Virus record (IMG/VR): IMGVR_UViG_3300024252_000004
Coordinates: 280,770 to 344,769 of that record
DNA length: 64,000 nucleotides
Source of the DNA: a virus
Strand: one strand, 5' to 3'
This document shows positions 12,813 through 64,000 of this stretch, piece by piece. The notes under the pieces are model-generated. The model worked only from the letters and a program-made list of their open reading frames with translations. It was not told the origin of the DNA and did no database searches. Position numbers and translations under genes: made by a program. Position 1 is the first letter of the stretch; every line of letters starts with the position of its first letter.

Positions 12813-12841
12813 TTTCTAAATTTCTCGTAGGATGTTATAGA
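12813..12841 (+). promoter_or_regulatory. sigma70-like promoter, family copy 3
   Basis: TTTCTA-N17(AATTTCTCGTAGGATGT)-TATAGA; tRNA-Tyr 62 nt downstream. Confidence 0.55.
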
Positions 12842-13821: not shown

Positions 13822-13843
13822 CTCCCTTAGCTCAGTTGGTTAA
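13822..13843 (+). pseudogene. tRNA 5' remnant (acceptor + D arm start CTCCCTTAGCTCAGTTGGTTAA) truncated by HNH gene
   Basis: canonical tRNA 5' end with no matching D-stem 3' strand, anticodon or T arm; overlaps the stop of minus-strand HNH 13840-14325. Confidence 0.45.
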
Positions 13844-21690: not shown

Positions 21691-21768
21691 GGGGAATTAG
21701 CTCAATTGGCCAGAGCGGCAGATTCTAGACCTGCGACAGTGTGGGTTCGAGCCCCACATTCCCTACCA
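21691..21768 (+). tRNA. candidate amber-suppressor tRNA, anticodon CTA, tRNA-Trp-like body
   Basis: acceptor GGGGAAT/ATTCCCT, D arm GCTC-AATTGGCCA-GAGC, anticodon loop TTCTAGA on stem GCAGA/CCTGC (A-C mismatch at 31-39), 6-nt variable, T arm GTGGG-TTCGAGC-CCCAC, CCA encoded. Confidence 0.5.
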
Positions 21769-26070: not shown

Positions 26071-26517
26071 GTGAACAACATCACTAATGAGGTTGCAATG
26101 AGTTGGAAAACGAAACTGCTTCGAAAGTTCTTCCTTGTGAAGGAGATTAGATCAAGAAAAGGTATGCTGCATTTTGAAAGATGGCGCATCCTGAATGTTT
26201 GGTTGTTCGCTATATACATCCACAAGATTTATCGTAGCGACGAAGACATCCATCAGCATTCGCATCCTTGGATTTTCTTTTCTAAAATTCTCACAGGAGG
26301 TTATATAGAGCAGAGGGGCGGACGCGGCGATCTTATGACCCAAGGCTCATGGACAATCATGAAGCCGAAAGAGTACCACAAGATTACGGTCATCAAACCG
26401 ACGACCTCGTTCGTAATCACTGGCCCGAGGCTACATAAGTGGGGTTACATGACGAGCGAAGGACATGTTGATTCTGTCGCTTATAGAGAAAGAAAAAGAA
26501 AGAACGTGACGCATTAG
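26071..26517 (+). CDS. hypothetical protein
   Basis: 148-aa ORF from GTG; alternative ATG 26098. Confidence 0.4.
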   Translation: MNNITNEVAMSWKTKLLRKFFLVKEIRSRKGMLHFERWRILNVWLFAIYIHKIYRSDEDIHQHSHPWIFFSKILTGGYIEQRGGRGDLMTQGSWTIMKPKEYHKITVIKPTTSFVITGPRLHKWGYMTSEGHVDSVAYRERKRKNVTH

Positions 26518-35223: not shown

Positions 35224-36138
35224 ATGCACCTAACGTCAATAGAACAAATTGACCGAGAGACATTAGAGAAGTTATTCCAAAGAGCGGATTACTGGAAAAG
35301 AATAAGAACACAAAAGCTTACAACAATTAAGCCGCTTCAGGGCCGCTTATTGACAAACCTATTTTATGAGCCATCGACAAGGACTGCATCATCGTTCTTT
35401 GCGGCGGCTTCTTTTCTTGGTGCCTCTGTTAATCAAATTACCAATGTAGCTTTCTCTTCTGTATCAAAAGGCGAAACGTTTGAAGACACCATTCTGACTC
35501 TCGCACAATACTCTGACGGAATTATCTTAAGGCACCCTGAGAAAGGGTACGCAGACTTAGCCGCCAGTGTGTCTCCTGTCCCCATCATTAATGCTGGGGA
35601 TGGCACAGGTGAACACCCTACTCAGACGCTACTTGATTTATATACAATATACTCAGAGCTTGGCAGGATAGATGACTTAGCTGTGGCAATGGTTGGTGAT
35701 CTTAAAAATGGGCGAACAGTTCATAGTTTAACTAAAGCGTTTGCAAAGTACGAAACAGAAACCGATCTTATTTTCATCTCTCCAGAAGAGCTTAAGATGC
35801 CCGAAGAGTATTGCGAAGTCTCTAAGGTTCTTGGGATACAAGAAACAGAAGATATGACTTCCGCAATGGAAAATAATCATATCGATGTACTGTATATGAC
35901 TCGCATACAAAAAGAGCGCTTCAATAATCAAGAAGATTATAAAAGGTATCATGGCTGCTATGAGCTTACGCCAAAAGAAATGAAGCTCATGCCGGACGAA
36001 TCATGTGTCCTTCATCCCTTGCCAAGGGTTGGGGAGATATCGTCAGAGGTTGATCACGACCCAAGGGCTGCATACTTTCGTCAAGTAAAGAATGGTATGT
36101 TCATGAGAATGGCGATATTAGAGGCATTAATTTCTTAA
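35224..36138 (+). CDS. pyrB: aspartate carbamoyltransferase catalytic subunit
   Basis: EPSTRT carbamoyl-phosphate motif, HPTQ, and VLHPLPRVGEI..FRQVKNGMFMRMAILEAL characteristic of ATCase rather than OTCase. Confidence 0.8.
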   Translation: MHLTSIEQIDRETLEKLFQRADYWKRIRTQKLTTIKPLQGRLLTNLFYEPSTRTASSFFAAASFLGASVNQITNVAFSSVSKGETFEDTILTLAQYSDGIILRHPEKGYADLAASVSPVPIINAGDGTGEHPTQTLLDLYTIYSELGRIDDLAVAMVGDLKNGRTVHSLTKAFAKYETETDLIFISPEELKMPEEYCEVSKVLGIQETEDMTSAMENNHIDVLYMTRIQKERFNNQEDYKRYHGCYELTPKEMKLMPDESCVLHPLPRVGEISSEVDHDPRAAYFRQVKNGMFMRMAILEALIS

Positions 36139-36159
36139 TTTCCCACAAGATGGTATGTG
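36131..36159 (+). promoter_or_regulatory. sigma70-like promoter, family copy 4 (overlaps pyrB 3' end)
   Basis: TTTCTT-N17(AATTTCCCACAAGATGG)-TATGTG; gene 36224 downstream. Confidence 0.55.
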
Positions 36160-38513: not shown

Positions 38514-38542
38514 TTTCTAAAATTCCTGTAGGACGTTATAGG
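38514..38542 (+). promoter_or_regulatory. sigma70-like promoter, family copy 5, flanked by inverted repeat CTTCGAAA/TTTCGAAG
   Basis: TTTCTA-N17(AAATTCCTGTAGGACGT)-TATAGG; gene 38585 downstream. Confidence 0.55.
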
Positions 38543-43868: not shown

Positions 43869-44135
43869 TTGAAACTTGTTGAGGTAAATATGACCACAGA
43901 AGATAATGTATATACGTGGATTTGTCTGCGTTACGATTCCGTTGGCTTGGTGACTGCTGAGCTTAGATGGGACAATGAAACAGTTGAAACTCTTGGAGGC
44001 TCACACTCAAAGTGGACTCCGGTGAAATTTCATGCACAGAGCAAATGGGGCAATAGCCTGCCGATTCATTGGCATGGTTACGAGATCCCTGAGGCTGTCA
44101 AAATCGATGGAGTCATCGAAGTATCGGAAGACTGA
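43869..44135 (+). CDS. hypothetical protein
   Basis: 88-aa ORF. Confidence 0.4.
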   Translation: MKLVEVNMTTEDNVYTWICLRYDSVGLVTAELRWDNETVETLGGSHSKWTPVKFHAQSKWGNSLPIHWHGYEIPEAVKIDGVIEVSED

Positions 44136-44434
44136 TGACTGACGTAGTAATGTATGATTTACTTGATCAGCCACTGCGTATCGGTGACGAAGTCATTTAT
44201 GCAAATAGTGGCCGCTTATGGAAAGGCAAGCTCCTTTATGTAAGCGGCCTCACTTGCGGATCTTGTCAGATAACAGTTCCAGAACTTGGTGGCAGGGTTG
44301 TAACGTTGCAACTTAGGAAGAGTAGAACTCCTTCTTATATCAGGACCTCTCAGCGTAAGCAGATTGAAACTGGTGAGTTTAAGATTAAGAGTTCAAGGTT
44401 AATTAAGATAGAGAAAGGTTCTGTGAAAGAGTAA
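44135..44434 (+). CDS. hypothetical protein
   Basis: 99-aa ORF. Confidence 0.4.
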   Translation: MTDVVMYDLLDQPLRIGDEVIYANSGRLWKGKLLYVSGLTCGSCQITVPELGGRVVTLQLRKSRTPSYIRTSQRKQIETGEFKIKSSRLIKIEKGSVKE

Positions 44435-44443
44435 TAAAAACTC

Positions 44444-44846
44444 GGGGGCGTTTTGGATTCGACCGGGTAACAGATAGGAATAGTGCAAGCCGATCAAGGT
44501 AACTCAGATCGTTATAAGCGTTACAAAAAACAAACTAGTTGACGACTATTCATTCGTGTACGCAAACGCAGGCAGAGGCTTCGGCGCTCCTGTAGTAGCA
44601 TACGCCTAATTCCGATTTAGGCATGTGGACTCTGTGTTCCATATATCCAAACACAGATAAGTGGTTGAACGCACTGACATAAACATTGTTCAAAAATGGA
44701 GTAGCCCGAAAGGGAGGAGGCGTCTATCATTTGGCGTCAGGGGATAAAATGAATACTTTGCCTATTTAGAGAAATGGGATAAGCTTGTGAACGACTTGAA
44801 ATTGACGTTATGCGACACGAGGGTTCGACTCCCTCCGCCTCCACCA
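44444..44846 (+). ncRNA. ssrA: tmRNA (SsrA), standard one-piece
   Basis: 5' GGGGGCGTTTTGGATTCGACCGGG and 3' GAGGGTTCGACTCCCTCCGCCTCCACCA match tmRNA termini; acceptor GGGGGCG/CGCCTCC with G3-U70 and A73; tag frame GCA AAC GCA GGC AGA GGC TTC GGC GCT CCT GTA GTA GCA TAC GCC TAA (ANAGRGFGAPVVAYA). Confidence 0.85.
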
Positions 44847-44860
44847 TCAAAACTTGCCTG

Positions 44861-44892
44861 CTCCACCTTAATTGCGTATAATTAAGGTGGAG
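44861..44892 (+). promoter_or_regulatory. perfect 13-bp hairpin sequestering the RBS of HNH gene 44900
   Basis: CTCCACCTTAATT-GCGTAT-AATTAAGGTGGAG; SD GGTGGAGG lies in the 3' arm, ATG 8 nt downstream. Confidence 0.55.
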
Positions 44893-44899
44893 GGCAAAT

Positions 44900-45493
44900 A
44901 TGTCACAAATAGAGTTAACTTGCGAAATATGCGGAACTACCTTTAGTAGGGCTAAGAAAGAGTACAATAGATCTCTTAAGCTTGACAGGAGAATGTTCTG
45001 TTCAAGAAGCTGCACAGGAAAAGGTGTTAAGAATAATCTTGGAGACCAATTAGGTATAGGCAGACCTTCTAATTTGAATTCTGGAAATAGACAAGATGAA
45101 TATTCCCCATTTAGATACTTTGTAAAAAAAGCGCGTGAAAGAAAGCACAAGTATGATATAGATGTAGAATATCTTAAAGTCTTATGGGAAATACAAGATG
45201 GTAGGTGTGCATTGAGCGGGCTAAAGATGGTATTGCCAAAGAATGCATCTGTTTGGGAAAAAGATAAAGGCAATCCTTGGAAGCCAAGTCTCGACAGAAC
45301 GGATCCCTCTGTTGGCTATATGAAGGGCAATGTTAGATTTGTTTGCAATATTGGAAACCTTTGCAAAAACATTTGGCCAGACGATACCGTGTACCATTTC
45401 TGCAAAGAGGTAGCGAAGAATATGGCAAAGCCTGTGCGTTGCGGCGGATTAGATTATAAGGAGGCAGAGGATGGGCAAGAAAGAAGCTCTTGA
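44900..45493 (+). CDS. HNH-family homing endonuclease (putative)
   Basis: N-terminal Cys pairs; RCALSGLKM..SLDRTDPSVGYMKGNVRFVCNIGN resembles HNH_3/AP2-type motif; directly follows tmRNA. Confidence 0.5.
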   Translation: MSQIELTCEICGTTFSRAKKEYNRSLKLDRRMFCSRSCTGKGVKNNLGDQLGIGRPSNLNSGNRQDEYSPFRYFVKKARERKHKYDIDVEYLKVLWEIQDGRCALSGLKMVLPKNASVWEKDKGNPWKPSLDRTDPSVGYMKGNVRFVCNIGNLCKNIWPDDTVYHFCKEVAKNMAKPVRCGGLDYKEAEDGQERSS

Positions 45494-45767
45494 AGAGGAA
45501 ATCAAAAGGTTAGAATTAAAACTTGAGAAACTTAAATCTGTTGAAAAGTGGATTAGGCCGCTCTCAGATTATTCTGACGAATAGAAGATAATGGAATTTG
45601 ATTTGCTTTATGGGCAAGCTTTAGAGCATTTAAACGAAATAGAGTCTTCAGGATATGCCGATGATGATGCTGCGCATTATATGTTTAAATCCATGATGGA
45701 TCTGTTATCTCCATTTGATTCTTCAATTTGGGACTATTACAATTCATTAACGTAATAAGGAGAGAAA

Positions 45768-46031
45768 GTGCTAAGTAGAGCTGAGAAACTTGCTAAGCTA
45801 TCTGAATGGATAGAGGCTCGTAAGCAATACTCTAAGGTATGTAACGATGCAATCTCTCTGTTGAAAAAGGACCTTTCGGTAAATTGCGATCATCCAGAGG
45901 ATTTTGTTTCACCATACAGGTGGGAATGGGATGATGGATATGGGAAACAGAAGATGATGGACGGTAAGCGCTGTACCATATGTCTCAAAGTCAAGCGATG
46001 GGATAGTAGCAGTATTTGGAGTGATGAGTGA
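45768..46031 (+). CDS. hypothetical protein
   Basis: 87-aa ORF. Confidence 0.4.
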   Translation: MLSRAEKLAKLSEWIEARKQYSKVCNDAISLLKKDLSVNCDHPEDFVSPYRWEWDDGYGKQKMMDGKRCTICLKVKRWDSSSIWSDE

Positions 46032-46246
46032 TACACGTTTTAACTTTTGATATGACATCTGTGTCTGGAGACGAGCATTCGGCTCATATTGTTCTTAACT
46101 CAAAAGAGGATGCCGAAAAGGTCCAGAGATATCTTATTGAGAACAACGTAGTTAATGGCTCATGTCCTTTTCACAATTTTGATATTTCACCTTATGTTCC
46201 GGAAAAGTCAATGTCATTTGAAGAATGGAAGGAAAGGTGGGGATGA
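46028..46246 (+). CDS. hypothetical protein
   Basis: 72-aa ORF. Confidence 0.35.
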   Translation: MIHVLTFDMTSVSGDEHSAHIVLNSKEDAEKVQRYLIENNVVNGSCPFHNFDISPYVPEKSMSFEEWKERWG

Positions 46247-46419
46247 TCAAACGGTTCATTCTGAAAAAGCTTCTTCCTTTCAGGGAGAGATATTGGGTTA
46301 TTGTGACTTTTGAGGATCACACAACTGATGAGTGGCCTGAGGATGTACGGAAATATCATTACGACAGATGTGCTAAGCTGAGAGAGCAGGAAAGACGAAA
46401 CGAAGGAAGAAAAAAATAA
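46225..46419 (+). CDS. hypothetical protein
   Basis: 64-aa ORF. Confidence 0.35.
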   Translation: MEGKVGMIKRFILKKLLPFRERYWVIVTFEDHTTDEWPEDVRKYHYDRCAKLREQERRNEGRKK

Positions 46420-46421
46420 AA

Positions 46422-46649
46422 ATGCTGGATAGGAGCTTCATTGCAGACGTGGAAAAAGCTGCTTACGAATCTCTTACGAATAATGAGTCGTTCGAGATTA
46501 TGGATGTGAGGATTTTCGAAAAATTCGATAGGATTTATCTATCAAATGACGGAAAGCTTGAATTTGTAATGAATAGTAATGCTCGTTCAAAAAGGCTTGC
46601 GGCGCAAAGGCTATCGATAATTGTGCAGGTTAAATTATATTTAGAATGA
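46422..46649 (+). CDS. hypothetical protein
   Basis: 75-aa ORF. Confidence 0.35.
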   Translation: MLDRSFIADVEKAAYESLTNNESFEIMDVRIFEKFDRIYLSNDGKLEFVMNSNARSKRLAAQRLSIIVQVKLYLE

Positions 46650-46840
46650 TAACATGGAGAAAGGATGATTTGGATATTAGAAGTAGATCTTCCATACGAA
46701 TTCTATTTTGAGAATTACGAAGAGTTGCCATATATTCAGCGAATTCTGCATTTGATTTCTGATGAACTATGTGTGCAGTACATTGGTAAAGACGGAGAAG
46801 AACACGTCGCCGTAATTTATATCGAAGAGGAACTTAAAAG

Positions 46841-47200
46841 ATGAAATATGATTTTGTACCAGTAAAGACCAGAGCCCCTAAGTTGATGTGGGAGATTGTA
46901 GCAGAGTTTATGCACGGAGATGCAGATCACTATTCAAAAGAGAAAGTGAAGTTCGCAGAAGAGGACGACTTTCTTGAGAAGGTAAAGATCTTAAAAGACA
47001 GGTTGGCTTATCGTCAGAAGTTCTGGAACGCAGCGATTGATTCAAACAATGCCTGGGCGGACGAACAAGAGGGTTGGCTGGAAGTGCCATTTGAGTATGG
47101 ATCAGATAGTAGCTGGAGAGCTGACATTGATGGCTTTGAATGTTTCTACTATGATGAAAACGGTGTTAAGTTCAAGGTGGTTTTCAATGAAGAAGGTTGA
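46841..47200 (+). CDS. hypothetical protein
   Basis: 119-aa ORF. Confidence 0.45.
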   Translation: MKYDFVPVKTRAPKLMWEIVAEFMHGDADHYSKEKVKFAEEDDFLEKVKILKDRLAYRQKFWNAAIDSNNAWADEQEGWLEVPFEYGSDSSWRADIDGFECFYYDENGVKFKVVFNEEG

Positions 47201-47408
47201 GCTAAATATTCCTTATGCCCTTAAGGTAAAGGACTATCACGATCTATATGATTACGCTAAGATGTTTAAGAACCTTAGTGTGCTTATAGAAATGGAAGAG
47301 ATCGGATTTGATGGCACTGATTATATCGGCATCGTCTACATAGATAAAGGTTCAGAGTATGAGGCTTTGAGGCGAGAACTCATTGAGGATACGTGGCAAG
47401 TCGTATAG
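47187..47408 (+). CDS. hypothetical protein
   Basis: ATG 47187 overlapping previous stop; longer ORF from 47037 lies inside previous gene. Confidence 0.35.
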   Translation: MKKVELNIPYALKVKDYHDLYDYAKMFKNLSVLIEMEEIGFDGTDYIGIVYIDKGSEYEALRRELIEDTWQVV

Positions 47409-47418
47409 AGAGGTAACA

Positions 47419-47988
47419 ATGAATGAGATAACCATAGCTGGAGCAAGATTCCTCGTCGGAAAATTGCCGGAGCATCTAACCCTTGACAAGGATGAGTTCG
47501 AAAAGCTATGGGAGATTCGTCCGTCACATTTCAATGCGATCAGGATGTTTGACAAAGAAGTCTTTATCCCAAGATGGCAACAAGCCTATGGGAAAAATTA
47601 TTTCTTTTCAAACCAGACAAGCGAAGCGCTGCCGATCACAAAAGAACTTGAGCCGTTTCTGCTATGGGCACAGACATTCAATCCTGCATATAACGGGTTG
47701 CTTCTTAACTGGTACGACTCCGATCTAAAGCACTACATAGGTAGGCATACGGATAGCACCACAGGACTCGTAAAGGGCTCGCATATAATTACCGCATCAC
47801 TTGGTGCAGACAGAGCCTTCCGAATTAGGGAGCGCGGTAAGGGTAAAGGTTTTGAGGACTATATTGTCTCTAACGGTTCTGTAGTTGTCATACCTTGGGA
47901 GACCAACCGCACGCACACGCACGAGGTTCCTTATCATGGGAAGTACTCAGGCAAAAGAATTTCTGTAACAGCAAGGGCATTTGTATGA
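47419..47988 (+). CDS. AlkB-like 2OG-Fe(II) dioxygenase
   Basis: ATG 47419; GRHTD (HxD), LGADRAFRIR, VIPWETNRTHTHEVP second His region, fits AlkB family. Confidence 0.6.
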   Translation: MNEITIAGARFLVGKLPEHLTLDKDEFEKLWEIRPSHFNAIRMFDKEVFIPRWQQAYGKNYFFSNQTSEALPITKELEPFLLWAQTFNPAYNGLLLNWYDSDLKHYIGRHTDSTTGLVKGSHIITASLGADRAFRIRERGKGKGFEDYIVSNGSVVVIPWETNRTHTHEVPYHGKYSGKRISVTARAFV

Positions 47989-48362
47989 GAGATGAACTTC
48001 AGCAAAAAATATATGACAAGTATCCTGAAATGTTTAATAATCGTTATCATACAGAAATTCTATGTGGTGATTGCTGGCTTCCAATTGTAGATGCAGCTTG
48101 CCAAAAAATAAAGAGACGACTTAAGGGTACAGGACACTTTGTAAGGTTTATTTCAATTAGTAGCTTATCGTATCCCCCTTCTCTTGGATTTTTGGGACCA
48201 GCGAGACTAAGATTTACTTGGACTTTGGTAAGAAGAGAATTTTATACACATAATGAACCGAGCAATCAGGGCAAGATTTTGATCGGGGAAGTTAAAGAGA
48301 TTTTATGCATGGCTACACGTTTGTCTTTGCTGATACCAGAGGAGATCATAAATGATCGGTAA
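47985..48362 (+). CDS. hypothetical protein
   Basis: ATGA overlap at 47985; ORF open from 47895. Confidence 0.4.
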   Translation: MRDELQQKIYDKYPEMFNNRYHTEILCGDCWLPIVDAACQKIKRRLKGTGHFVRFISISSLSYPPSLGFLGPARLRFTWTLVRREFYTHNEPSNQGKILIGEVKEILCMATRLSLLIPEEIINDR

Positions 48363-48600
48363 ATTATTCGAGTCTATTAACAAGGTGAGAGAGATTAACT
48401 CGGAGCATTGTTATCACAAGGTTCTCGTGTTTGATGAGGATGGGCATTACGAAACTCTCATGATGACGGAACACGAGTTATCTGTAATTAGACAGCGCTC
48501 AGAGAGGAACCGTGACGAGGAGCTTGTTCCTAAGTGGCATGACAAGGCTTATGTTTCTGCTGTTTTTTCGGTAAAGAGTCTATTCGCCAAAGTTTTCTAA
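48352..48600 (+). CDS. hypothetical protein
   Basis: 82-aa ORF. Confidence 0.4.
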   Translation: MIGKLFESINKVREINSEHCYHKVLVFDEDGHYETLMMTEHELSVIRQRSERNRDEELVPKWHDKAYVSAVFSVKSLFAKVF

Positions 48601-48622
48601 ATTTCCCATAAGATGTTATAGG
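48594..48622 (+). promoter_or_regulatory. sigma70-like promoter, family copy 6, pointing into the 3' end of the minus-strand gene 48640-49566 (antisense)
   Basis: TTTCTA-N17(AATTTCCCATAAGATGT)-TATAGG; no plus-strand ORF or tRNA downstream. Confidence 0.5.
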
Positions 48623-48639
48623 ATGACGTAGCCTTTGTT

Positions 48640-49566
48640 TTACGCGATTGAAGCCCACCAAGCTTCGGCGTCAAAGTTCTCATCTTCATCGGCTAATGGC
48701 AATTCTTCCGAATCATCAGGCGTAGGCGCCTGCTGCTCAATAAGGGAAGCAATTGCCATTTGTGCTGTACCGGTAATGAATTCAAGGTTTGGCAGATAAA
48801 GAGTCTTCATGAACTTCTCGGCAGGAGCTTCAACAGCGAGCCATAGAAGCATAGAGATACCAAAGTCTATTGCGGAGACTGTCAAGCCTCCAATTCCAAG
48901 ACCTGCGAAATATCCCAATACTGTCGGCATCAATAGGAGGATATCTTTAAACCCGTCAAGAAGATTGACGACAAAAGAAATTCCTTCGTCCCACAGTAAG
49001 CTGCCAGATTTTGTAAGTTCTACAACGGTTTTGAGTTCGACTGGAGACTCGGAATACTCTTTAGCTTTGCTCATCATTTTTGCAGGCTGTAGTGTGTCCA
49101 TCCAGTTAAGGCCAACGTCACCAGATTTACCCTGTACTTTTTTGAATTCCTGAAAGCCATAATACACATTCTTAATGGCTATTAAGAAACTGAATAGTGG
49201 AGCAGCTTTGCCGAGCAGAGCCATAGCTCCTGCTTCTTTAACAAAGAAATCCTCTGATGTCATATTCATATTTGACATTACAACCCTAAGCTTCTCAGCA
49301 GAATCTTTAATATCTTCAGGGTCAGCTTCTTTTAGCGCCGCTGCATCTTTAAGGTTTTTTGCAGCTTCAACGAGGTATACTATAGCTTTAGTTTGCACCT
49401 GAGTTTCGTGAGGACGTTCGATCTCATTGAGAACTGCTTTCCACGCCTCAAGGTCTCCGCCAACGATATTTGCAGACTTGATTAGCAAGTGCGTAAGCTC
49501 GTCGGCTTCGCGGTTAAGGTTGGCTTCTTTTAGGATATCAATAAGGTATTTAAGTTCTTTGTCCAC
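48640..49566 (-). CDS. hypothetical protein with C-terminal transmembrane helices
   Basis: 308-aa ORF, the only long minus-strand gene here; C-terminal LLMPTVLGYFAGLGIGGLTVSAIDFGISMLLWLAV hydrophobic segments. Confidence 0.55.
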   Translation of the reverse strand: MDKELKYLIDILKEANLNREADELTHLLIKSANIVGGDLEAWKAVLNEIERPHETQVQTKAIVYLVEAAKNLKDAAALKEADPEDIKDSAEKLRVVMSNMNMTSEDFFVKEAGAMALLGKAAPLFSFLIAIKNVYYGFQEFKKVQGKSGDVGLNWMDTLQPAKMMSKAKEYSESPVELKTVVELTKSGSLLWDEGISFVVNLLDGFKDILLLMPTVLGYFAGLGIGGLTVSAIDFGISMLLWLAVEAPAEKFMKTLYLPNLEFITGTAQMAIASLIEQQAPTPDDSEELPLADEDENFDAEAWWASIA

Positions 49567-49600
49567 TGACTGCTCCTAAGCATAAAGGTTTTATTAGTAA

Positions 49601-50725
49601 ATGAATATAATTCAAGCCAGTAATGCTAACGTAGTAAGGGTTGCGGAGTATTTCCTACCAAAGGAAATTACAAATCAAAACTTAATAATAGCAGGTGGGT
49701 TTGCTACGTGGCTGCTATATTTGCATAAGACCGTAGAAGATTGGGATAAGTTTTTTGCAGACTTAGATGTGAGTCTCATAAATCTTGAGGATAAACGGTT
49801 AAAGGATGAAGCGACAAAAGGTATTGCGAAATTTGGAGATATAGATATCTGGATTCCGGAGAACCATTCTTTAAGAAAGATGAAAATAATCACAAGTCAG
49901 GAGCTTTATCCCTTTGGCCTTAAAGAAAACGCAGGACTTGTGGAGAAAAGTCTTGCTTCCGAGAAATCATTTGAGAAAAGCTTCGGCATTTCCTCTGACC
50001 TTCTGAAGGTTAGCAGATTCGCACACACATATAGGCTTGAGCATACAGTTAAACTTTTAGGAAAAATAGCGGTTCCGTCAGTGTTCGGCTTGTTTGAGCC
50101 AATTGTAATTCCGTATAGAAAGCGAATTAAAATGAGGAATGCTTTTCAGATTATAAGAAGAACCTGTGATTCGTTAGAGGAAGTTTTTTCTACATTTGAT
50201 TTTCACCATACAAGAGCAGCCTACTACAATGGCTTACTACACTTTACAAAAAAAGCTGAGAGGACTTTCGAAGAGAAGACAATCTTTCCGACAAAGAGTT
50301 TCCTTGAGCGACACGATAGCATATCTATTAACTCTGCCTGTAGAGCATTTAAGTATATGGAGAGGTACGGATTTGGCTTCTCAGAAGACTTGGCAGATAA
50401 GATTGCGGACCTGTATCTTCAAGTTGGAATAGCAGAGGATACTGCGGATTATGTTGGCCCTCCAAAATATGCCATCATCAATTTATTCAATGCAACGAAT
50501 CTCACCCCAGAGTATGATCCAGATTATTTAATCTTTTTTTCAGAGATCACTCCAGAAACCTTGAGTAAGGTTAAAGGTATTTATCTTAAAAGATTTCTAA
50601 CATCATTTAAGACATTTTCGAGAATGTCATGCTTTAAAGATGAGTATATAGGTTTGTTGCTATGTTGCGACATGGAAGAAATAAGTAAAGTAATCGAGAG
50701 GCGACTATATGAACAATCCGACTGA
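49601..50725 (+). CDS. hypothetical protein; weak nucleotidyltransferase-like N-terminus
   Basis: 374-aa ORF; IIAGGFATWLLY..DLDVSL..FGDIDIWIPE loosely resembles GS..DxD of pol-beta-type NTases. Confidence 0.45.
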   Translation: MNIIQASNANVVRVAEYFLPKEITNQNLIIAGGFATWLLYLHKTVEDWDKFFADLDVSLINLEDKRLKDEATKGIAKFGDIDIWIPENHSLRKMKIITSQELYPFGLKENAGLVEKSLASEKSFEKSFGISSDLLKVSRFAHTYRLEHTVKLLGKIAVPSVFGLFEPIVIPYRKRIKMRNAFQIIRRTCDSLEEVFSTFDFHHTRAAYYNGLLHFTKKAERTFEEKTIFPTKSFLERHDSISINSACRAFKYMERYGFGFSEDLADKIADLYLQVGIAEDTADYVGPPKYAIINLFNATNLTPEYDPDYLIFFSEITPETLSKVKGIYLKRFLTSFKTFSRMSCFKDEYIGLLLCCDMEEISKVIERRLYEQSD

Positions 50726-51044
50726 ACTAAGAAATTACATTTACTCTGTTGATGACGAAGAAACATTGGTCACTCTCAATGGAATGTTTCGTGACGCTTT
50801 GACTATCATTGATGTAGAGAGGAAGCTTCAGGAGCTAAAAGACAGCCTGTTCGACGGAGCCAGGATGGAGCACATGATGACATTAGCTCCATTTGAAGAC
50901 GAAGAAGAGGTCATTCATATGGCGGTTACAGTCTTGAAGGGTAAGCTCAATGTGATTGAGGAAAGAAAGAAGGAAGAAGTAGCCGCCGAGCCTGAGGAAC
51001 AAAAGCCCGAAGCTGTTCAGGAGGACTCAAAAACCGAGGATTGA
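50709..51044 (+). CDS. acidic hypothetical protein
   Basis: 111-aa ORF, Glu-rich. Confidence 0.4.
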   Translation: MNNPTELRNYIYSVDDEETLVTLNGMFRDALTIIDVERKLQELKDSLFDGARMEHMMTLAPFEDEEEVIHMAVTVLKGKLNVIEERKKEEVAAEPEEQKPEAVQEDSKTED

Positions 51045-51093
51045 TACTAATATCATGAAGCTCATGTGAATACCCAAATCTGGAGACTATCAC

Positions 51094-52044
51094 ATGGATA
51101 GAAAGATTAGAAAATCCCTTTTAGAGGACTTGATCAAAGCTGCTCAAGAGACTGATGATGATGAAGATGTAAGCTCTTTCATGGGCGATTTCCTCCCTTA
51201 TGATGAGGGTCAGTTCGGAAACCATGAAGTCTTTATGGAAGACTTCACCACAAGGTTTAGGCCGAAAGATATCAATCAGGCAATCGCTATGTCTAATAAT
51301 TCCAATTGGATCACGATTCCAGAGGTAGCAAGAAGAAAAGGTTTTCCTCACCTATATGTCCTTGACCCAGGAAAGGCAACTCCTTATGAAAGATACTTTG
51401 GAGTTAAGACTGAGTACGGGTATTTGGACACACCAGCTACAGCGGCGCTCAGAGCAGCAGTGTTCAACCCTGGTAAGGTGCATCGTTTTGAGGCTAACCA
51501 ACCAATGCTTGAGATTCCACCAGATTACTCATCTTTACCATCTGGAACAAAGTTTATGATATTGGATCCGCAGGCTGAGCAGTCTGTGATTGCGAATGCT
51601 TCAAGAATTATGGAAGGTGCGCAAGGGCGACCAGAACATATCAGAAGGGTTAAGATTGACGAAACTGGCGCAGGAGAGTTTACCTCTACTCATGGCGGAG
51701 ACAGACCTAAGTTAACGCCAGGAATGGCAGAGAATGATCCCGAACTTGATTCTAAGCTAAAGCATCTTGACACCGCAATCGATCGTTTCTATAAGGAAGA
51801 TAAGGACGGTGGGATGCAACTTCGAAGGCTGCACTCTACAGTTGCAAGATTGAGACAAATCCTCGATTCGAAAATTGATGGTTTGGTGTCAGAACAAAGG
51901 GATAAGAATAGGGCTTTGAGATTCGAATTCAAGAAAGAAGAGTATGATGATCTAATTAAGCAAGCGCTTCTAAGAATCATTATCGCAGAGCTTACAGGCG
52001 AAGGTTCGCCATTCGAGGGGACAGACCTCGGATTGCTTCAATGA
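51094..52044 (+). CDS. hypothetical protein (316 aa)
   Basis: ATG start; no domain recognised. Confidence 0.5.
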   Translation: MDRKIRKSLLEDLIKAAQETDDDEDVSSFMGDFLPYDEGQFGNHEVFMEDFTTRFRPKDINQAIAMSNNSNWITIPEVARRKGFPHLYVLDPGKATPYERYFGVKTEYGYLDTPATAALRAAVFNPGKVHRFEANQPMLEIPPDYSSLPSGTKFMILDPQAEQSVIANASRIMEGAQGRPEHIRRVKIDETGAGEFTSTHGGDRPKLTPGMAENDPELDSKLKHLDTAIDRFYKEDKDGGMQLRRLHSTVARLRQILDSKIDGLVSEQRDKNRALRFEFKKEEYDDLIKQALLRIIIAELTGEGSPFEGTDLGLLQ

Positions 52045-52385
52045 ACATAGAGTTTGAAAAAGATGAAATGATGATAGTGGATGGTCACAGTAAAACCGTT
52101 GATGGTTATGTTGTAAAGGACTTTCCAGTATTCGGAATAGCTAAATACAAGTTAAAAGACTCGGGAGCCCAGCCTAATTGGCAATGGAGCATTATCCATA
52201 TCCCGTCAGAAGATATCTTTTCGGATATCTTCAGAACCAAGAAGAGTGCGGAGGAATGGCTGGACATTTTCTTGGAGGAAACTCAAGGACCAAAACAAAT
52301 TCTGCTTACGGTCCCTGGTGTAAGATTGATTAGAATTGATTTTGCAGAAGAGATTAGGACAACATTCGCAGAATGGAATAGATAG
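52041..52385 (+). CDS. hypothetical protein
   Basis: 114-aa ORF. Confidence 0.45.
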   Translation: MNIEFEKDEMMIVDGHSKTVDGYVVKDFPVFGIAKYKLKDSGAQPNWQWSIIHIPSEDIFSDIFRTKKSAEEWLDIFLEETQGPKQILLTVPGVRLIRIDFAEEIRTTFAEWNR

Positions 52386-52395
52386 GGACAAATAA

Positions 52396-53100
52396 ATGAA
52401 GAGAGTCGTCATATCCGACATTCACATTGGCAGCCAATATTTTAAGGCGGTTGAGCTTTTGCGTTTTTTAAGTGAAGTCGAATATGATGAGTTAATTTTA
52501 GCAGGGGACATTATTGATTTCATCAAGGTCCCTGAGTTTACTGACCGTGCTTTAGCAATCGCACGCACAGTTGATTACTCAAAGACTATCATTTATGTTG
52601 TTGGAAATCACGATACCCCGCTCAGAGGGTTTATTGGCAAAGAATTCTTCGGCATCAAATTTGTTGACAAATATGAATTTGAAGAAGGCGGAAGAAAGTT
52701 TAGGGTTGAGCATGGGGATGCCTACGATCATCCTATTCTTCAGAACAAAATATTTATGACGCTACTGTCTATCGTTCACGATGCGATTGAAAAGATCACA
52801 GAGTTCGATATAACTACTTGGTGGTCAGATTACAAGATTAAAAAGAGAAAGCTACGACGTATCTGGGATATTTTGAAAAAGAATAAAGACGTTGACGTAT
52901 TTATAATGGGGCATTCGCACCATCCAGAGTTTGTAATTTGGGGACTTCCTGATAAGGATGATATTTCTATCAAGACTTATGTAAACACTGGAGATTGGGT
53001 CTCGCATCAGACCTATGTTGAAATCATTGACGGAATTGTGAGGTTGAAAGATTATGGAGCAGGAAACACTGATATTGGATCGGACGAATTTACCGATTAA
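52396..53100 (+). CDS. metallophosphoesterase (LpxH/calcineurin-like)
   Basis: ISDIHIG..AGDIID..GNHD..EHGD..MGHSHHP..NTGDW motif series. Confidence 0.65.
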   Translation: MKRVVISDIHIGSQYFKAVELLRFLSEVEYDELILAGDIIDFIKVPEFTDRALAIARTVDYSKTIIYVVGNHDTPLRGFIGKEFFGIKFVDKYEFEEGGRKFRVEHGDAYDHPILQNKIFMTLLSIVHDAIEKITEFDITTWWSDYKIKKRKLRRIWDILKKNKDVDVFIMGHSHHPEFVIWGLPDKDDISIKTYVNTGDWVSHQTYVEIIDGIVRLKDYGAGNTDIGSDEFTD

Positions 53101-53743
53101 CGAGTGGCTTAATTACATAGACAGTGAGGGCTGCGGATTAGATTTAGTCATTACCGACCCTCCATATCCATTCGATAACAAAAATGGCTCAGGGAGACAC
53201 TCCTATCATGAAGGTGCCGACCTCATGTATCATAGGATGGACTGGAAGGAACTTCAGAGTGTTTTTGTCAAGATTAAAGATTTAATGAATGATGGTGGAA
53301 GAATCTATGTTTTCTCCAATCGTGATGGATATGAAAAGACGAAACAGCTCATGCTCGATGCAGGCTATCGTTACCTTAATACTATCGTTTGGGATAAAGA
53401 AAGGTTTGGTGGCGGGTATCACTGGAGGAATTCAGTCGAGTACATCCATTATTTCTGCAAGCCAAAGAAGCCAGCAGTCCTTGTCAAAGGTGCTCGCAAT
53501 GTGTTTGAGTATAAGAAGCCTACAAAGAAGTGTGCTATTCCTGAGATTGGTTATGACCCAGCGTCCAATGACTCTCCGAAGCCTCACGAAATATGGAGAG
53601 ACATCATATTGCATGGCGGAGCAGAGGGTGATGTAGTAGCAGACCCATTTGCCGGCTCTGACCCATTGTCAGCAGCACTACTTTTGAACGACGAACTTGC
53701 AGAGAAGGTAAGTAGAGCATATACAAATTCTTTTGATGTTTAA
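53054..53743 (+). CDS. DNA N6-adenine/N4-cytosine methyltransferase (beta class)
   Basis: ITDPPY motif IV upstream of AdoMet motif DPFAGSD; no restriction partner nearby. Confidence 0.75.
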   Translation: MEQETLILDRTNLPINEWLNYIDSEGCGLDLVITDPPYPFDNKNGSGRHSYHEGADLMYHRMDWKELQSVFVKIKDLMNDGGRIYVFSNRDGYEKTKQLMLDAGYRYLNTIVWDKERFGGGYHWRNSVEYIHYFCKPKKPAVLVKGARNVFEYKKPTKKCAIPEIGYDPASNDSPKPHEIWRDIILHGGAEGDVVADPFAGSDPLSAALLLNDELAEKVSRAYTNSFDV

Positions 53744-53809
53744 ATAGTTTTTAATCTACCCGAAACGTAAAAATGGTTGGAACCTTTTATGTTCTATGGA
53801 GATTAAAAC

Positions 53810-55411
53810 ATGGGAAAAGTTGTAAAGATTGGACCTGAAGCAAGAAAAGAAATGCTTCAAGGTGTAGATATTTTAGCAAACGCCGTTAAGGCCACTCTTG
53901 GTCCGCGAGGAAGAAACGTTGCTATCGAAAGGGAATGGGGTCACCCGCTTATTACAAAAGATGGTGTGACTGTAGCTCGACAGATCAGATTGGATGATAG
54001 AATTCAGAACATGGGAGCACAGTTGGTGCGTTCGGTTGCAGCCGCAGCAAATAGCGCGGCAGGAGACGGGACAACAACTGCAACTGTTCTCGCTCAGGCA
54101 ATCTACTCCAAAGGCTTAGTTCTTGTAGACGAAGAGGGACTCAACCCTGTTCTTCTTAGACGCGGCATTGACCTTGCTGTGACAAAACTTTCAAGTAGAC
54201 TGAAGGGCTTATCTGCATCTGTAAGCGATGAAGCAAGCATGAGAAGTGTTGCTGTAATCTCTGCAAATAATGATAAGGTTCTCGGTGCCAAAATCGCAGA
54301 AGCTATCGCGGCAGTTGGTCAGCACGGAGTCATTTCCGTTGAGGAAGCGACTGGAAGATCAACTGAGGTGTTCTACTCGGAAGGTATCAAGCTCGATAAG
54401 GGATGGACCTCTGAGCATTTCGTGACAAATTCTGCAAGATTTACGGCAGAATTTGATGATTGTCTTATATTTCCTTATGATGGGGCGATTTCCAGCATCA
54501 CTGATGTAAGGGAAATTTTTGAGGAATTAGCCGAGCAATCCAAACCCGTTCTTTTGGTTGTAAAGCAGATCACAGATGAAGCTATTGCTCATCTTGTCTA
54601 CAACAAGATTCAGGGAAATATTAGAATCGCGGTAGTTCGTTCTCCTGGGTTTGGTGATTCGAGACGTGCATTCCTCGAAGACCTTGCCATTGTTTCTGGC
54701 GGAAAGATGTTCTGTGATAATGACGGAATCGGTCTTGACGGAGCAACAGTTGCTGATCTTGGGACCGCACGCAGGGTCATCGTAAGCCAGAACAGCACAA
54801 CTATAATTGAAGGTGGGGCAGATCCCAAAGATGTTGAGGCGAGAGCCATTCAGATTAAAGAGCAGCTTACTGCTGGTGGTCAACATGATTATCAGCTTGA
54901 GATTCTAAAAAGCAGACTTGCAAGAATCACTGGCTCGGCAGCGATTTTTAAGGTCGGCGGAAAATCTGAAGCTGAAATGAGAGAGAGAAAGGACAGAGTG
55001 GAAGATGCTATCAACGCTGTACGTTCAGCGCTTGAAGAAGGTGTAGTTCCCGGTGGTGGCTCCGCACTAATTCATGCCCTTCCAGTCCTTGACGAGATTG
55101 AGACAGATGGCCTTCTTCCTGAAGAGGTGGCCGGCATTGGAATTATCAGAGAGGCAGTTAAGGCCCCATTTTATCAGATTCTTGATAACGCCGGAGTCAC
55201 TGGTGCTGATGATTTTGTTGAGCAGATTTTGAATTCTGATGAGCCAAGCGGTTATGATGCTCTTAATCTTGAGTTTGTAACTAACATGTTAGACAATGGG
55301 ATTATGGATCCTTGTAAAGTTGTAAGAAGCTCTTTGGAGCATGCTGCATCAGCCAGTGGAACACTGCTGACGACAGAGGTTGCAATTTACGAAACTGAAA
55401 CGGAGAGATAA
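53810..55411 (+). CDS. groL: chaperonin GroEL (Cpn60)
   Basis: 533 aa; MGKVVKIGPEARKEMLQGVDILANAVKATLGPRGRNV..AGDGTTTATVLAQAI..full-length GroEL similarity. Confidence 0.9.
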   Translation: MGKVVKIGPEARKEMLQGVDILANAVKATLGPRGRNVAIEREWGHPLITKDGVTVARQIRLDDRIQNMGAQLVRSVAAAANSAAGDGTTTATVLAQAIYSKGLVLVDEEGLNPVLLRRGIDLAVTKLSSRLKGLSASVSDEASMRSVAVISANNDKVLGAKIAEAIAAVGQHGVISVEEATGRSTEVFYSEGIKLDKGWTSEHFVTNSARFTAEFDDCLIFPYDGAISSITDVREIFEELAEQSKPVLLVVKQITDEAIAHLVYNKIQGNIRIAVVRSPGFGDSRRAFLEDLAIVSGGKMFCDNDGIGLDGATVADLGTARRVIVSQNSTTIIEGGADPKDVEARAIQIKEQLTAGGQHDYQLEILKSRLARITGSAAIFKVGGKSEAEMRERKDRVEDAINAVRSALEEGVVPGGGSALIHALPVLDEIETDGLLPEEVAGIGIIREAVKAPFYQILDNAGVTGADDFVEQILNSDEPSGYDALNLEFVTNMLDNGIMDPCKVVRSSLEHAASASGTLLTTEVAIYETETER

Positions 55412-55695
55412 TGGATGATTTTTTGCTGGTCAATGCAGGACTCAATCTTCAGAAGTTCGAGAACAATAAGCATTTCTCATTGGAAGAGCACCCTGAGATT
55501 ATGGAAGCACTTAATGTATTTCCAAATGGGGAGATTTGCGGAATTCGACTTGAAGCAATCGAAGAGGTCTTAAACGACACAGAAGTTGACAACATTCGCA
55601 ATGAACTCAAGGCAGCCCCAAAGCATGTAGAGATTAGATCAGCAAGAGATTTCTTAAAGGTCATAGCATACTACATTGATATTGAAGAATATTGA
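55411..55695 (+). CDS. hypothetical protein (not GroES-like)
   Basis: 94-aa ORF overlapping GroEL stop; no mobile-loop/GroES signature. Confidence 0.4.
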   Translation: MDDFLLVNAGLNLQKFENNKHFSLEEHPEIMEALNVFPNGEICGIRLEAIEEVLNDTEVDNIRNELKAAPKHVEIRSARDFLKVIAYYIDIEEY

Positions 55696-55711
55696 CCTTA
55701 GCAAATAGTTC

Positions 55712-55745
55712 AAAAGCCTGATAGCAATTTAGCTGTCGGGCTTTT
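55712..55745 (+). terminator. candidate intrinsic terminator
   Basis: AAAAGCC..(inner stem GATAGC/GCTGTC)..GGCTTTT followed by T-rich tract. Confidence 0.35.
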
Positions 55746-55769
55746 GTCATTTCTAATAATATAGTTTGT

Positions 55770-57344
55770 TTGATTGAGGTGAACGTGCGTAAGCTTGCAG
55801 ACTTAGAAGTTACAGAGAAGACAGATCCTGCTACCGGAAATAAAATCCGTATTAGCACGACTGCTCGTCTTGCGTTGAGAATTATGTTTCCAAAGTTTAC
55901 TGAAGAAAGGAATGCGAGACTAAATGATCGAATGGCATTCATGTTCAGTAATTCAGCAGGCAACGTTGTTCACCGTTTCAAATTAGGGAACAAAGATACC
56001 GGAGCATGGCGCCCAGCGGAACCAGATTCTGGTGAACAGAATAATAGAGAAGTTGCTGAAATTAGGTCAGGCCCAGGCGGAGACTTTTTCTTCATTTCTG
56101 CTATTAGGCAGGGATACATTGATATCTTAACATTACAAGATAATTGGAAGCAGGGAAAGCCTAATCAAGGTGGATCAAAAGGTGCTGGCGCAGGAGCCGG
56201 TGATGGAGATGTATCTTTGGCGAGTCTGAATATCGACATGAGTATATTCGGAGCTACTAATAAAACGAATTTGGACAGAAACAGGAGACATAACATGTCA
56301 GCATTGCGCATTCTTGCAGATTTAGCAAACAAGTTGGACAGTTTTGGTGAGACCAAGGCTGCTGATGAAGTAACCAAGATGATAGAGAAGAGAGCTAGGT
56401 GGCCTTTTGGAAAGGCGGACGAAGAGGAAGAATTTCCTGCTGCCCCTCCAGTCCCTAAGCCTCCTGTGTCTCCACAGTCTTCTCCATTTTTAAGAGGAAC
56501 AATTCCTCCTGCGCCGCCTATGAACCCTGTTGTTACGACCAGTCCGGAAGGTTTCAGCGATGCTCCAGTTGCTGAACCAGCAGAGTCAAGAGTAGTTGGA
56601 AAGCTTGGTCCGATTAGGCCAGACAAAGATCCTTACTCTTACGAATTCCTTCCTTCCGAAGGTGTCTTCAGAGTTTCCAGCTACACTTATGGGCCAGGAG
56701 CGGCCCCTAACCCAAGGGCAGAGAGAGCCGTTGGCGCACATATTACAAGAGAAAATGCAAGAGCTTGGGCTGTATTGTCCGAGTATGTTCCAGAAGGGGA
56801 CAAGTCCCCTTCCGAAGGGAGACATCTTCTCACAGAGTCTACAGGTGATCCTGCAAGAGACTGGAAAGAAGCACAGCTTCAGTTTGCTGGCTGGGTTAAC
56901 TCAGGACACTTTGGTACTGAACTTCAGAAGAAGTTTAGACTTGCAGACCCGGGTATGCCAATGCGTCAGCTTATGGATGCAGAGCTTTCTCCAGAGAGTG
57001 CGGGATTCCTTGTTGAAAGGTTTGAGGCAATGATTGCTGGAAATGTTCTTTCGGATCTAAAAGATCCTGAGACTCTCCTCAGATATGCTCTTGAGCTTCA
57101 GAACTATGCTCATCTTGCTAACAGGGCAAGGGCAGTAGGTCAGCAGTCAATGAGAGAATCTGAGACGGTCATGTCTCCGGGTGGATACCCATCATCATAC
57201 CCATCATCATCAGAGGCTGAAGATTTCACACTGGCATCTATGGACTCAATAGAGGATATAAGAAAGAAGGCATCTGCTAACGTAGATAGGCTTGCAGCAC
57301 TTTTCACAGTCCCAGGTGGAAGCGGTCCTTTCGGAAGGGACTGA
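55770..57344 (+). CDS. hypothetical protein (524 aa; Pro-rich centre, possible virion protein)
   Basis: GTG start; long ORF. Confidence 0.5.
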   Translation: MIEVNVRKLADLEVTEKTDPATGNKIRISTTARLALRIMFPKFTEERNARLNDRMAFMFSNSAGNVVHRFKLGNKDTGAWRPAEPDSGEQNNREVAEIRSGPGGDFFFISAIRQGYIDILTLQDNWKQGKPNQGGSKGAGAGAGDGDVSLASLNIDMSIFGATNKTNLDRNRRHNMSALRILADLANKLDSFGETKAADEVTKMIEKRARWPFGKADEEEEFPAAPPVPKPPVSPQSSPFLRGTIPPAPPMNPVVTTSPEGFSDAPVAEPAESRVVGKLGPIRPDKDPYSYEFLPSEGVFRVSSYTYGPGAAPNPRAERAVGAHITRENARAWAVLSEYVPEGDKSPSEGRHLLTESTGDPARDWKEAQLQFAGWVNSGHFGTELQKKFRLADPGMPMRQLMDAELSPESAGFLVERFEAMIAGNVLSDLKDPETLLRYALELQNYAHLANRARAVGQQSMRESETVMSPGGYPSSYPSSSEAEDFTLASMDSIEDIRKKASANVDRLAALFTVPGGSGPFGRD

Positions 57345-58942: not shown

Positions 58943-58972
58943 AACAAGGAGGGCTTAGCCTTCCTTGTTTGC
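58943..58972 (+). terminator. candidate intrinsic terminator
   Basis: AACAAGGAGG-GCTTAG-CCTTCCTTGTT then TTGCG. Confidence 0.45.
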
Positions 58973-58985: not shown

Positions 58986-59014
58986 TTTCCAAATTTCCCA
59001 CAGGGTGGTATAAG
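58986..59014 (+). promoter_or_regulatory. sigma70-like promoter, family copy 7, upstream of purA
   Basis: TTTCCA-N17(AATTTCCCACAGGGTGG)-TATAAG. Confidence 0.55.
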
Positions 59015-63865: not shown

Positions 63866-64000
63866 TTTTTCTAAGCTACTCGTAGGAGGTTATAGGAGGT
63901 CGTGCAGGAAATGCGTCTTCATCCCCCTACTCACAAAGGAGTTATATAGCTTATGGCAACAATTAAAAGTACACTTGATTCATTACTATCTATGCCGAAT

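Follow-up and report, generated by a model that had tools for sequence, protein, structure and literature searches.

A promoter-like element facing a conserved reversed membrane-protein gene in an uncultivated jumbo phage: a possible noncontiguous operon

The short cis-antisense RNAs oop of phage lambda and sar of phage P22, which are directed against cII and ant, respectively, are about 70 nucleotides (nt) long and possess their own terminators, and in phage T4 early and late transcription run on opposite strands, with TATAAATA as the late promoter. Another arrangement, the noncontiguous operon or excludon, has been described in Staphylococcus aureus and Listeria monocytogenes, where one long transcript is mRNA and antisense RNA at the same time and the partners exclude each other (PMC7154746). 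The locus described here comes from an uncultivated jumbo phage. The analyzed stretch, referred to as the window, comprises 64,000 nt (positions 280,770-344,769 of IMGVR_UViG_3300024252_000004), and all coordinates are counted in it. At 48594-48622 of its plus strand, the window carries a bipartite promoter-like element, here called class A, that faces the 3' end of a minus-strand gene for a membrane protein of 308 amino acids (aa), here called the reversed gene. We think, with a probability of roughly 0.5, that this element heads an operon in which a leader of about 1 kb runs antisense to the reversed gene, and thus a noncontiguous operon or excludon as predicted from sequence. The features on which this view depends are the following, where RBS stands for ribosome-binding site.

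48352-48600, plus strand: 82-aa gene, the stop codon of which lies inside the class A -35 hexamer; its ortholog is found 5' of the same promoter in lineage L014
48594-48622, plus strand: class A element, TTTCTA - AATTTCCCATAAGATGT - TATAGG, facing the 3' end of the reversed gene
48623-49600, plus strand: predicted untranslated leader and putative antisense RNA, the stretch between the class A promoter and the first co-oriented gene
48640-49566, minus strand: reversed gene for an all-helical membrane protein (308 aa) from a jumbo-phage family that lacks annotation, with GTG start and RBS AGGAG
49567-49600, no strand: 34-bp divergent intergenic region containing both RBSs and the TACTAATA box, nearly identical in L006 and L001
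49592-49599, minus strand: TACTAATA box, class B promoter-like, ending 25 nt 5' of the reversed gene's GTG; on the other strand, the ATG of the 374-aa gene is 1 nt away
49601-50725, plus strand: gene for a 374-aa nucleotidyltransferase-like protein, likely of the Gad2 family, the occupant of a variable slot
51045-51052, plus strand: TACTAATA box of the same class as at the reversed gene, 5' of a 316-aa gene (51094-52044)
55711-55746, plus strand: strong predicted intrinsic terminator (15-bp stem, T-rich tail) 3' of GroEL and a 94-aa gene, where the unit probably ends

In the proposed operon, transcription started by the class A copy at 48594 would run from about 48623 to the terminator at 55711-55746 and would cover the Gad2-like gene, the 111-, 316- and 114-aa genes, the metallophosphoesterase, the methyltransferase, GroEL and the 94-aa gene. 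The reversed gene would sit backwards in the first kilobase of this unit and would be driven by a class B TACTAATA promoter lacking a -35 element. The class A transcript would then serve as mRNA for the downstream block and, at the same time, as an antisense RNA that spans the full length of the reversed gene. The outcome would be mutual exclusion via transcriptional interference and degradation of double-stranded RNA, with the membrane protein being made mainly while the TACTAATA promoters work and after class A activity has dropped. We infer that class A transcripts reach position 49601 and that the overlap is regulatory from the arrangement of the predicted signals, which is considered in the following.

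The open reading frame (ORF) of the reversed gene ends 17 nt past the -10 hexamer of the 48594 copy. At this convergent junction, no intrinsic terminator or stable structure is predicted on either strand; no terminator-like hairpin is found at 48600-48720 or 49480-49610 (fold z-scores -0.6 to +1.4), and no terminator is predicted within 100 nt 3' of the element (fold z-score +0.46). An opposite-facing gene between co-oriented genes with no predicted boundary terminator is one of the traits of an excludon. The first co-oriented gene, that of the 374-aa protein at 49601, follows the 48594 copy at a distance of about 980 nt, in which the only plus-strand ORF is one of 54 aa with a TTG start, antisense to the reversed gene. 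No plus-strand ORF is conserved in 48623-49600, where the window and L001 differ in how the antisense frames are interrupted, and the same stretch contains no tRNA and no above-threshold Rfam match. An earlier account of the window made from its letters alone (the sequence-only reading) had stated that neither a plus-strand ORF nor a tRNA lies downstream of the element; this is true locally and fails to take in the next co-oriented gene at 49601 and the small ORF present in L006 and L014. Further majority-strand promoter motifs were not detected from 48622 up to the TACTAATA box at 51045. A second clear plus-strand terminator is seen at 58948-58963, directly 5' of the class A copy at 58986, and both terminators may delimit transcription units.

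The class A element belongs to a family that is strongly enriched in the window. The exact pattern TTTCTA-N17-TATAGG occurs three times against 0.00 expected, the 29-nt consensus with at most 3 mismatches occurs five times against 0.01 expected, and a profile search with nhmmer yields nine copies, all of them on the plus strand, which carries nearly all window genes. The intact copy at 48594-48622, 'copy 6' of the sequence-only reading, is thus one member of a repeat family that occurs far above chance. The other eight copies, and the two reversed genes that follow one of them, are listed here.

662-690, plus strand: class A variant TTGCTA-N17-TATGAT, with hexamers nearer to the sigma-70 consensus, found by nhmmer
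8435-8463, plus strand: class A variant TTGCTA-N17-TATATA, 62 nt 5' of tRNA-Met (8525)
12813-12841, plus strand: class A copy, 62 nt 5' of tRNA-Tyr (12903), whose transcript would continue into the reversed HNH genes
13131-13664 (177 aa) and 13840-14325 (161 aa), minus strand: reversed HNH endonuclease genes among plus-strand tRNA genes (Tyr, Ala, Asn), 3' of the 12813 copy
26279-26307, plus strand: class A copy TTTCTA-N17-TATATA, found by consensus scan
36131-36159, plus strand: class A variant TTTCTT-N17-TATGTG, 5' of an ATG at 36224
38514-38542, plus strand: class A copy, 43 nt 5' of an ATG at 38585
58986-59014, plus strand: class A variant TTTCCA-N17-TATAAG, after a terminator hairpin and 5' of the adenylosuccinate synthetase gene
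63868-63896, plus strand: class A copy, 5' of an ATG near 63955

The common sequence of these copies is TTkCTA, AATTTCyCryAGGAtGk and TATrnn, with a spacer of 17 bp in all nine, and the conservation extends over about 30 bp and ends directly after the second hexamer, the sequence 3' of it not being conserved. Eight of the nine copies are located 40-90 nt 5' of a gene start or tRNA, the 48594 copy being the exception, and class A is presumably the promoter of the majority strand. A plain sigma-70 promoter at 48594 is not secure, because TATAGG lacks the last T and the -35 hexamer TTTCTA agrees with TTGACA at 3 of 6 positions; the TTGCTA variants at 662 and 8435 agree at 4 of 6, and only the 662 copy (TATGAT) has the T at position 6 of the -10 hexamer. 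Since the 17-bp spacer itself is conserved, a dedicated recognition factor is suggested; a sigma-factor gene like that of L012 was not found in the window. The idea that a terminator precedes every class A copy was rejected, as terminators are present only at 12810 and 58983.

The genomic context of relatives was read in 13 further lineages (L001, L002-4, L005, L006/7 and L008-L016). In all 14 lineages, including the window, the homologue of the reversed gene is a lone gene opposing its neighbours, down to a protein identity of about 21 %. Beyond the reversed gene follows a conserved block, consisting of a variable gene, 110-, 316- and 114-aa genes, a metallophosphoesterase, an N6/N4 methyltransferase and GroEL, which in every lineage lies just downstream in the sense of the majority strand and ends with the methyltransferase and GroEL. 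The neighbours on the 3' side of the reversed gene vary and comprise a 2-oxoglutarate (2OG) oxygenase, an FtsH-like protease, a formamidopyrimidine (Fapy) glycosylase, a patatin and others. On this variable side, L015 carries a GH46 (lysozyme-superfamily) gene at 5182-5868, L002 a gene for an FtsH-like AAA/M41 protease at 7068-9068, and L016 a patatin-like phospholipase gene at 5053-5934 that shares sequence with the reversed gene at the latter's 3' end. Converging majority-strand genes abut the reversed gene on its 3' side or extend into it in most lineages; the overlap amounts to 4-71 nt and affords no space for a terminator. Because the reversed orientation and the converging ORFs recur across lineages, convergent transcription into the reversed gene, as predicted from these arrangements, is an old and conserved feature and not a peculiarity of the window.

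The class A motif is recognizable in the closer relatives only, and in each of them it occupies the orthologous site. In L001, the copy lies beyond the reversed gene's stop codon, at a distance of 21 nt. In L006/L007 and L014 it is found 5' of a small ORF, about 50 aa in length, that extends into the reversed gene from its 3' side; the order in L014 is the ortholog of the 82-aa gene, the class A promoter, a 49-aa ORF and, in the opposite direction, the reversed gene. The L001 and L006 loci each span about 13 kb and contain no class A copy besides the one at this site, which precedes the GroEL block in both. The convergence of the element on the 3' end of the 308-aa gene, as noticed by the sequence-only reading, is hence confirmed at the same site in L001, L006/L007 and L014, with no predicted terminator in between. 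The small ORF, which is rich in tryptophan (W-rich), codes for 38-61 aa with the motif Y.lYrNG..kvVs.E.WE..WL.WW. It points towards the reversed gene, in most cases with an overlap at the latter's 3' end, and is a steadier neighbour of the reversed gene than the Gad2-like gene. It was located as follows.

L014 1216-1365 (minus strand); L002 6867-7052; L005 1604-1738; L006 6898-7053: W-rich small ORF
L012 5933-6106; L013 6062-6178; L015 5006-5131 (a distant lineage): W-rich small ORF

At the window and L001 loci this ORF is absent, and the window holds no relocated copy of it. The ancestor shared by the window phage and L001 lost about 150 nt with the small ORF, and it is because of this deletion that the promoter abuts the reversed gene without a proximal ORF. 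When the window is compared with L001, the class A core is identical at 23 of 29 positions (79 %), although synonymous sites are near saturation (synonymous divergence, dS, 1.4) and the diverged flanks have accumulated indels. That the promoter core was kept after the loss of the small ORF argues for a selected role beyond the expression of the small ORF.

The reversed gene possesses a promoter-like element of a different class. The sequence TACTAAT(A/T) is found 25-35 nt before its start in 11 of the 14 lineages (the upstream region of L016 was unread), and the corresponding box is TGCTAATT in L010 and TATTAATA in L015. The TACTAATA box is kept despite differing upstream neighbours, and no conserved -35 element accompanies it. 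It also precedes the 316-aa gene in seven lineages (the window, L001, L006, L008, L009, L012 and L013) as well as a 70-aa ORF (39145). In a position test that covered the window plus nine non-redundant loci, 13 of the 15 TACTAATA occurrences lay 15-45 nt 5' of an RBS and start codon, compared with 4.8 % for composition-matched permutations. The case for TACTAATA rests on position and cross-lineage conservation, and from these we infer a second promoter class. As a word enriched throughout the window, TTTACTAATA was rejected, as it is not enriched and the evidence is positional. Another TACTAATA is located at 56255-56262 inside a 524-aa ORF (55770-57344) and is followed by an RBS and an ATG (about 56297); the same layout is kept in L001 and, within a 710-aa gene, in L002, and it may represent an internal promoter with a nested start giving a C-terminal isoform. 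Both reversed HNH genes have CATATAATTA 13-19 nt 5' of the ATG, which is a third, canonical -10-like box. The palindrome ATTTCCT-N5-AGGAAAT (49655-49675) was considered as an operator and rejected, because it is not palindromic in L006 and lies within coding sequence.

The late promoter of T4 resembles this second class in several respects: TACTAATA is a -10-like 8-mer without a -35 element, agrees with TATAAATA at 6 of 8 positions and stands before a gene that faces against its neighbours, and as in T4 the genes on opposite strands would be expected to differ in timing. Unlike the T4 case, TACTAATA also precedes majority-strand genes such as the 316-aa gene, and no gp55-like factor was identified in the window.

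The minus-strand ORF at 48640-49566 is, as judged from its homologues and its substitution pattern, a real gene, and its being non-coding had been named by the sequence-only reading as the result that would speak against its proposal. Homologues occur at 76, 56-60 and 40 % identity, and the family as collected by a profile search numbers 75 clusters (clustering at 50 % identity). For the window gene and its L001 homologue, the ratio of nonsynonymous to synonymous substitution rates (dN/dS) is 0.10, with 53/27/142 differences at the three codon positions. An identical 308-aa protein is encoded by a Joint Genome Institute (JGI) contig of 395,127 bp, and the family was not found in scans of IMG/VR and GTDB genomes. 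The reversed gene had been called the only long minus-strand gene; it is the longest, and the two HNH genes lie on the minus strand as well. Transmembrane helices had been placed at the C-terminus of the protein. Hydrophobic segments do exist, with hydropathy peaks at residues ~113-131 and 209-246, and they are followed by an acidic soluble tail of 60 residues, so that they are not strictly C-terminal.

An AlphaFold2 model based on an alignment of 55 sequences predicts an all-helical protein (predicted local distance difference test, pLDDT, 83; predicted template modelling score, pTM, 0.71); a first model from 6 sequences was discarded at a pLDDT of 60. The model has an N-terminal helical domain of ~110 residues and three very long helices (104-151, 175-220 and 224-279), and it places both hydrophobic segments at one end of the bundle formed by these three helices, with the chain turning tightly at 221-223. 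Conservation is highest in this hydrophobic end (S197, D204, K207, the invariant D208, G227, D234 and S238). In sequence profiles of Pfam, PHROG, NCBIfam, PADLOC and the PDB, the protein has no significant relative. With holins and other phage membrane effectors it shares a hydrophobic helical hairpin and a charged C-terminal tail, and its expression might likewise need tight timing. In contrast to holins, which usually have fewer than 220 aa, it is longer, has an N-terminal helical domain and an acidic tail, and has no endolysin gene next to it in the window. It shows no similarity in sequence or fold to any holin family and does not conform to the holin type; only L015 has a GH46 gene, two genes away.

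Like the bacterial excludons, the locus has no predicted terminator between the reversed gene and its flanks, and the flanking transcript would likewise be mRNA and antisense RNA. As in SigB-dependent excludons, the two partners carry promoter-like elements of different classes. The present case differs in that it is predicted from sequence, belongs to a lytic-type jumbo phage and is conserved throughout a clade, and in that the antisense part is a 5' leader of ~1 kb that was made by a deletion in this lineage. If the operon-leader interpretation is true, this would be a clade-wide conserved noncontiguous operon or excludon in a virus, and jumbo phages would time a core membrane protein by gene orientation and two promoter classes. 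For the annotation of this uncultivated phage group with genomes of ~400 kb, the candidate motifs TTkCTA-N17-TATrnn (with its conserved spacer) and TACTAATA are gained, together with an unannotated core membrane-protein family (75 clusters), the W-rich small ORF and a slot able to hold a Gad2-like candidate anti-defence gene. Current ideas are not overturned, as antisense transcription in phages and bacteria is already well known.

Several observations weigh against a class A promoter that serves the downstream block through an antisense leader. An untranslated leader of ~980 nt would be a natural target of Rho, and transcripts may end within the reversed gene before 49601; a promoter of the 374-aa gene could hide inside the reversed gene, within the conserved 5' part of its coding sequence, and would escape notice there because coding constraint masks the signal. 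The 48594 element is a poor match to sigma-70, with 3 of 6 positions in its -35 hexamer and no final T in its -10 hexamer, and the TACTAATA 8-mer is not over-represented in the window (TACTAAT occurs 10 times versus 7.4 expected). Moreover, the HNH genes past the 12813 copy would appear to receive antisense read-through without an evident regulatory purpose, and the arrangement at 48594 is not unique in the window, since the 12813 copy would also read, past tRNA-Tyr, into these reversed genes. If transcripts did stop short within the reversed gene, with Rho as one conceivable cause, the orphaned class A promoter would yield a dedicated antisense RNA that silences or times a potentially toxic membrane protein, and the block would use another promoter. 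This is close to what had been proposed from the sequence alone, and we regard it as rather unlikely. It would explain a promoter that has no proximal ORF and has yet been under selection since the loss of the small ORF; several 78-nt windows of the leader have a C/G ratio of 1.7-2.0, and such C-rich, G-poor windows in an untranslated leader are compatible with Rho loading, and the target would be a membrane protein with a conserved hydrophobic hairpin. However, no predicted terminator marks out a discrete RNA, the same promoter position serves a protein-coding small ORF in most relatives, and the 48594 copy is the only recognizable majority-strand promoter before the block at 49601-55695, with no other such motif up to 51045; the missing ORF is accounted for by the deletion. 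With oop and sar, the locus has in common that a phage promoter is directed at the 3' end of a gene for which dosage or timing is important, whereas the lack of a predicted terminator past the 48594 copy sets it apart from such short RNAs.

The HNH genes past the 12813 copy are in the same situation as the 308-aa gene, and this also fits an explanation in which the antisense RNA is a by-product of one backwards gene in a near-unidirectional genome, with the promoter abutting the gene through the deletion that accounts for the missing ORF. The orientation would then be kept for another cause, such as coupling to its own promoter class or avoidance of expression by read-through, and it agrees with such a view that the converging genes differ by lineage (the small ORF, a patatin, ORFs of 125-150 aa). 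Orientation and convergent overlap are nevertheless kept in 14 of 14 lineages over a deep divergence, which is hard to explain without a selective value, and the promoter was conserved after its ORF was lost; we thus regard a mere by-product as rather unlikely, too. Very unlikely, in our opinion, is that the 30-bp repeat is no promoter at all and instead a regulator-binding, RNA-processing, or replication or packaging site, in which case nothing would fire into the reversed gene. The poor sigma-70 match, the failure of the built-in sigma-70 consensus scan to report the 48594 copy, and the conservation of the entire 17-bp spacer, which an ordinary promoter does not need, would all fit. The repeat has, on the other hand, a bipartite geometry with a fixed 17-bp spacer and variants that approach the consensus (TTGCTA-N17-TATGAT), and its copies are restricted to the coding strand, intergenic, placed 40-90 nt before genes or tRNAs, and conserved no further than the -10-like hexamer. 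A more far-reaching proposal, which we consider unlikely, is that the 308-aa protein represents a novel type of membrane effector in phages that is harmful if made early, with the class A antisense transcription as a selected timing switch opposing the TACTAATA promoter. The protein would be a long helical bundle that inserts its conserved hydrophobic hairpin with the invariant intramembrane Asp (K207-D208 ... G227 ... D234 ... S238) and might form a pore, time lysis or remodel membranes; harm from early expression would then be the reason why the clade keeps the gene backwards under converging transcription.

We thus prefer the operon with an antisense leader, in which the first gene of the downstream block in the window codes for the 374-aa protein. 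The gap between this gene and the reversed gene, given as 34 bp in the sequence-only reading, is exactly that. Gad2 is an anti-Gabija protein and predicted nucleotidyltransferase of SPbeta-like phages (bioRxiv 10.1101/2023.05.01.538930; Pfam PF26128). PF26128 is precomputed on P0007 (100 % identical, 294 aa), on P0088, and on the proteins of L008 (381 aa) and L013 (398 aa), and with hhalign a 5-sequence profile matches the experimentally verified Gad2 of Brevibacillus laterosporus weakly but specifically (E = 9.7e-5, probability 58 %, 88 columns), the match spanning the FDF...C and R..KY..G..S motifs. In addition, phrog_1614 'nucleotidyltransferase' matches 3 of 5 family members (best E = 8e-4). 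The nucleotidyltransferase motifs (hGG, DxD and a third acidic residue) are present in the 374-aa protein; among the homologues A31-G32-G33-F34, G79-D80-I81-D82 (GDIDxW) and F199-D200 are invariant. The guess of a nucleotidyltransferase made from the N-terminus alone therefore holds, and of the motifs named for it (GG, DLD, GDIDIWI), all of which are present, GG and GDIDxW are invariant and DLD is not. The 374-aa protein is likely a member of the Gad2 family, and it is graded as a distant one because a local Pfam-A hmmscan of it and its homologues gave nothing, even at E <= 10. It resembles Gad2 in length (374 versus 394-400 aa), in the shared predicted nucleotidyltransferase core motifs and in its place in an accessory-like variable slot, where anti-defence genes often sit; it differs in being very distant, with no isolated-phage match by BLAST, and an anti-Gabija role is only a candidate function.

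The slot between the reversed gene and the 110-aa gene was delimited as follows.

Window 49601-50725; L001 5862-6000; L009 4331-4936: variable slot
L010 4554-4946; L015 3499-3951; L016 3315-3953: variable slot, continued

A Gad2-like gene adjoins the reversed gene in 6 of the 14 lineages; unrelated ORFs of 130-212 aa take its place in four, and nothing in the rest. In L001, the closest relative, the Gad2-like gene is deleted with a 5' remnant of ~100 nt. The two divergent genes had been suggested to form an effector module, and this suggestion is not borne out by such an uneven distribution. The slot looks like a hotspot for accessory or anti-defence genes. Phage records contain no tblastn match for the 308-aa, the 374-aa or the L013 398-aa protein, and the INPHARED collection of isolated phages contains no megablast match to the DNA of 47000-52000.

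Just 5' of the 82-aa gene, an ORF at 47895-48362 aligns only partly with its L001 counterpart (L001 6990-7400), and its TTG start falls within the preceding 2OG-oxygenase gene; this ORF may be frameshifted or mis-delimited. An Rfam scan of 44000-56000 yielded only the phage transfer-messenger RNA (tmRNA) and a sub-threshold FourU match. The tmRNA is located at 44444-44846, with the tag peptide DDYSFVYANAGRGFGAPVVAYA. Besides GroEL, the window codes for an adenylosuccinate synthetase, an IMPDH/GMP-reductase-family enzyme and an S49 peptidase, and it contains, in addition to the tmRNA, 31 tRNA genes. Among these is an amber-reading tRNA with the anticodon CTA at 21691-21768, which ARAGORN labels 'Pyl'. 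It is probably a suppressor rather than evidence for recoding, because the genes translate intact under table 11.

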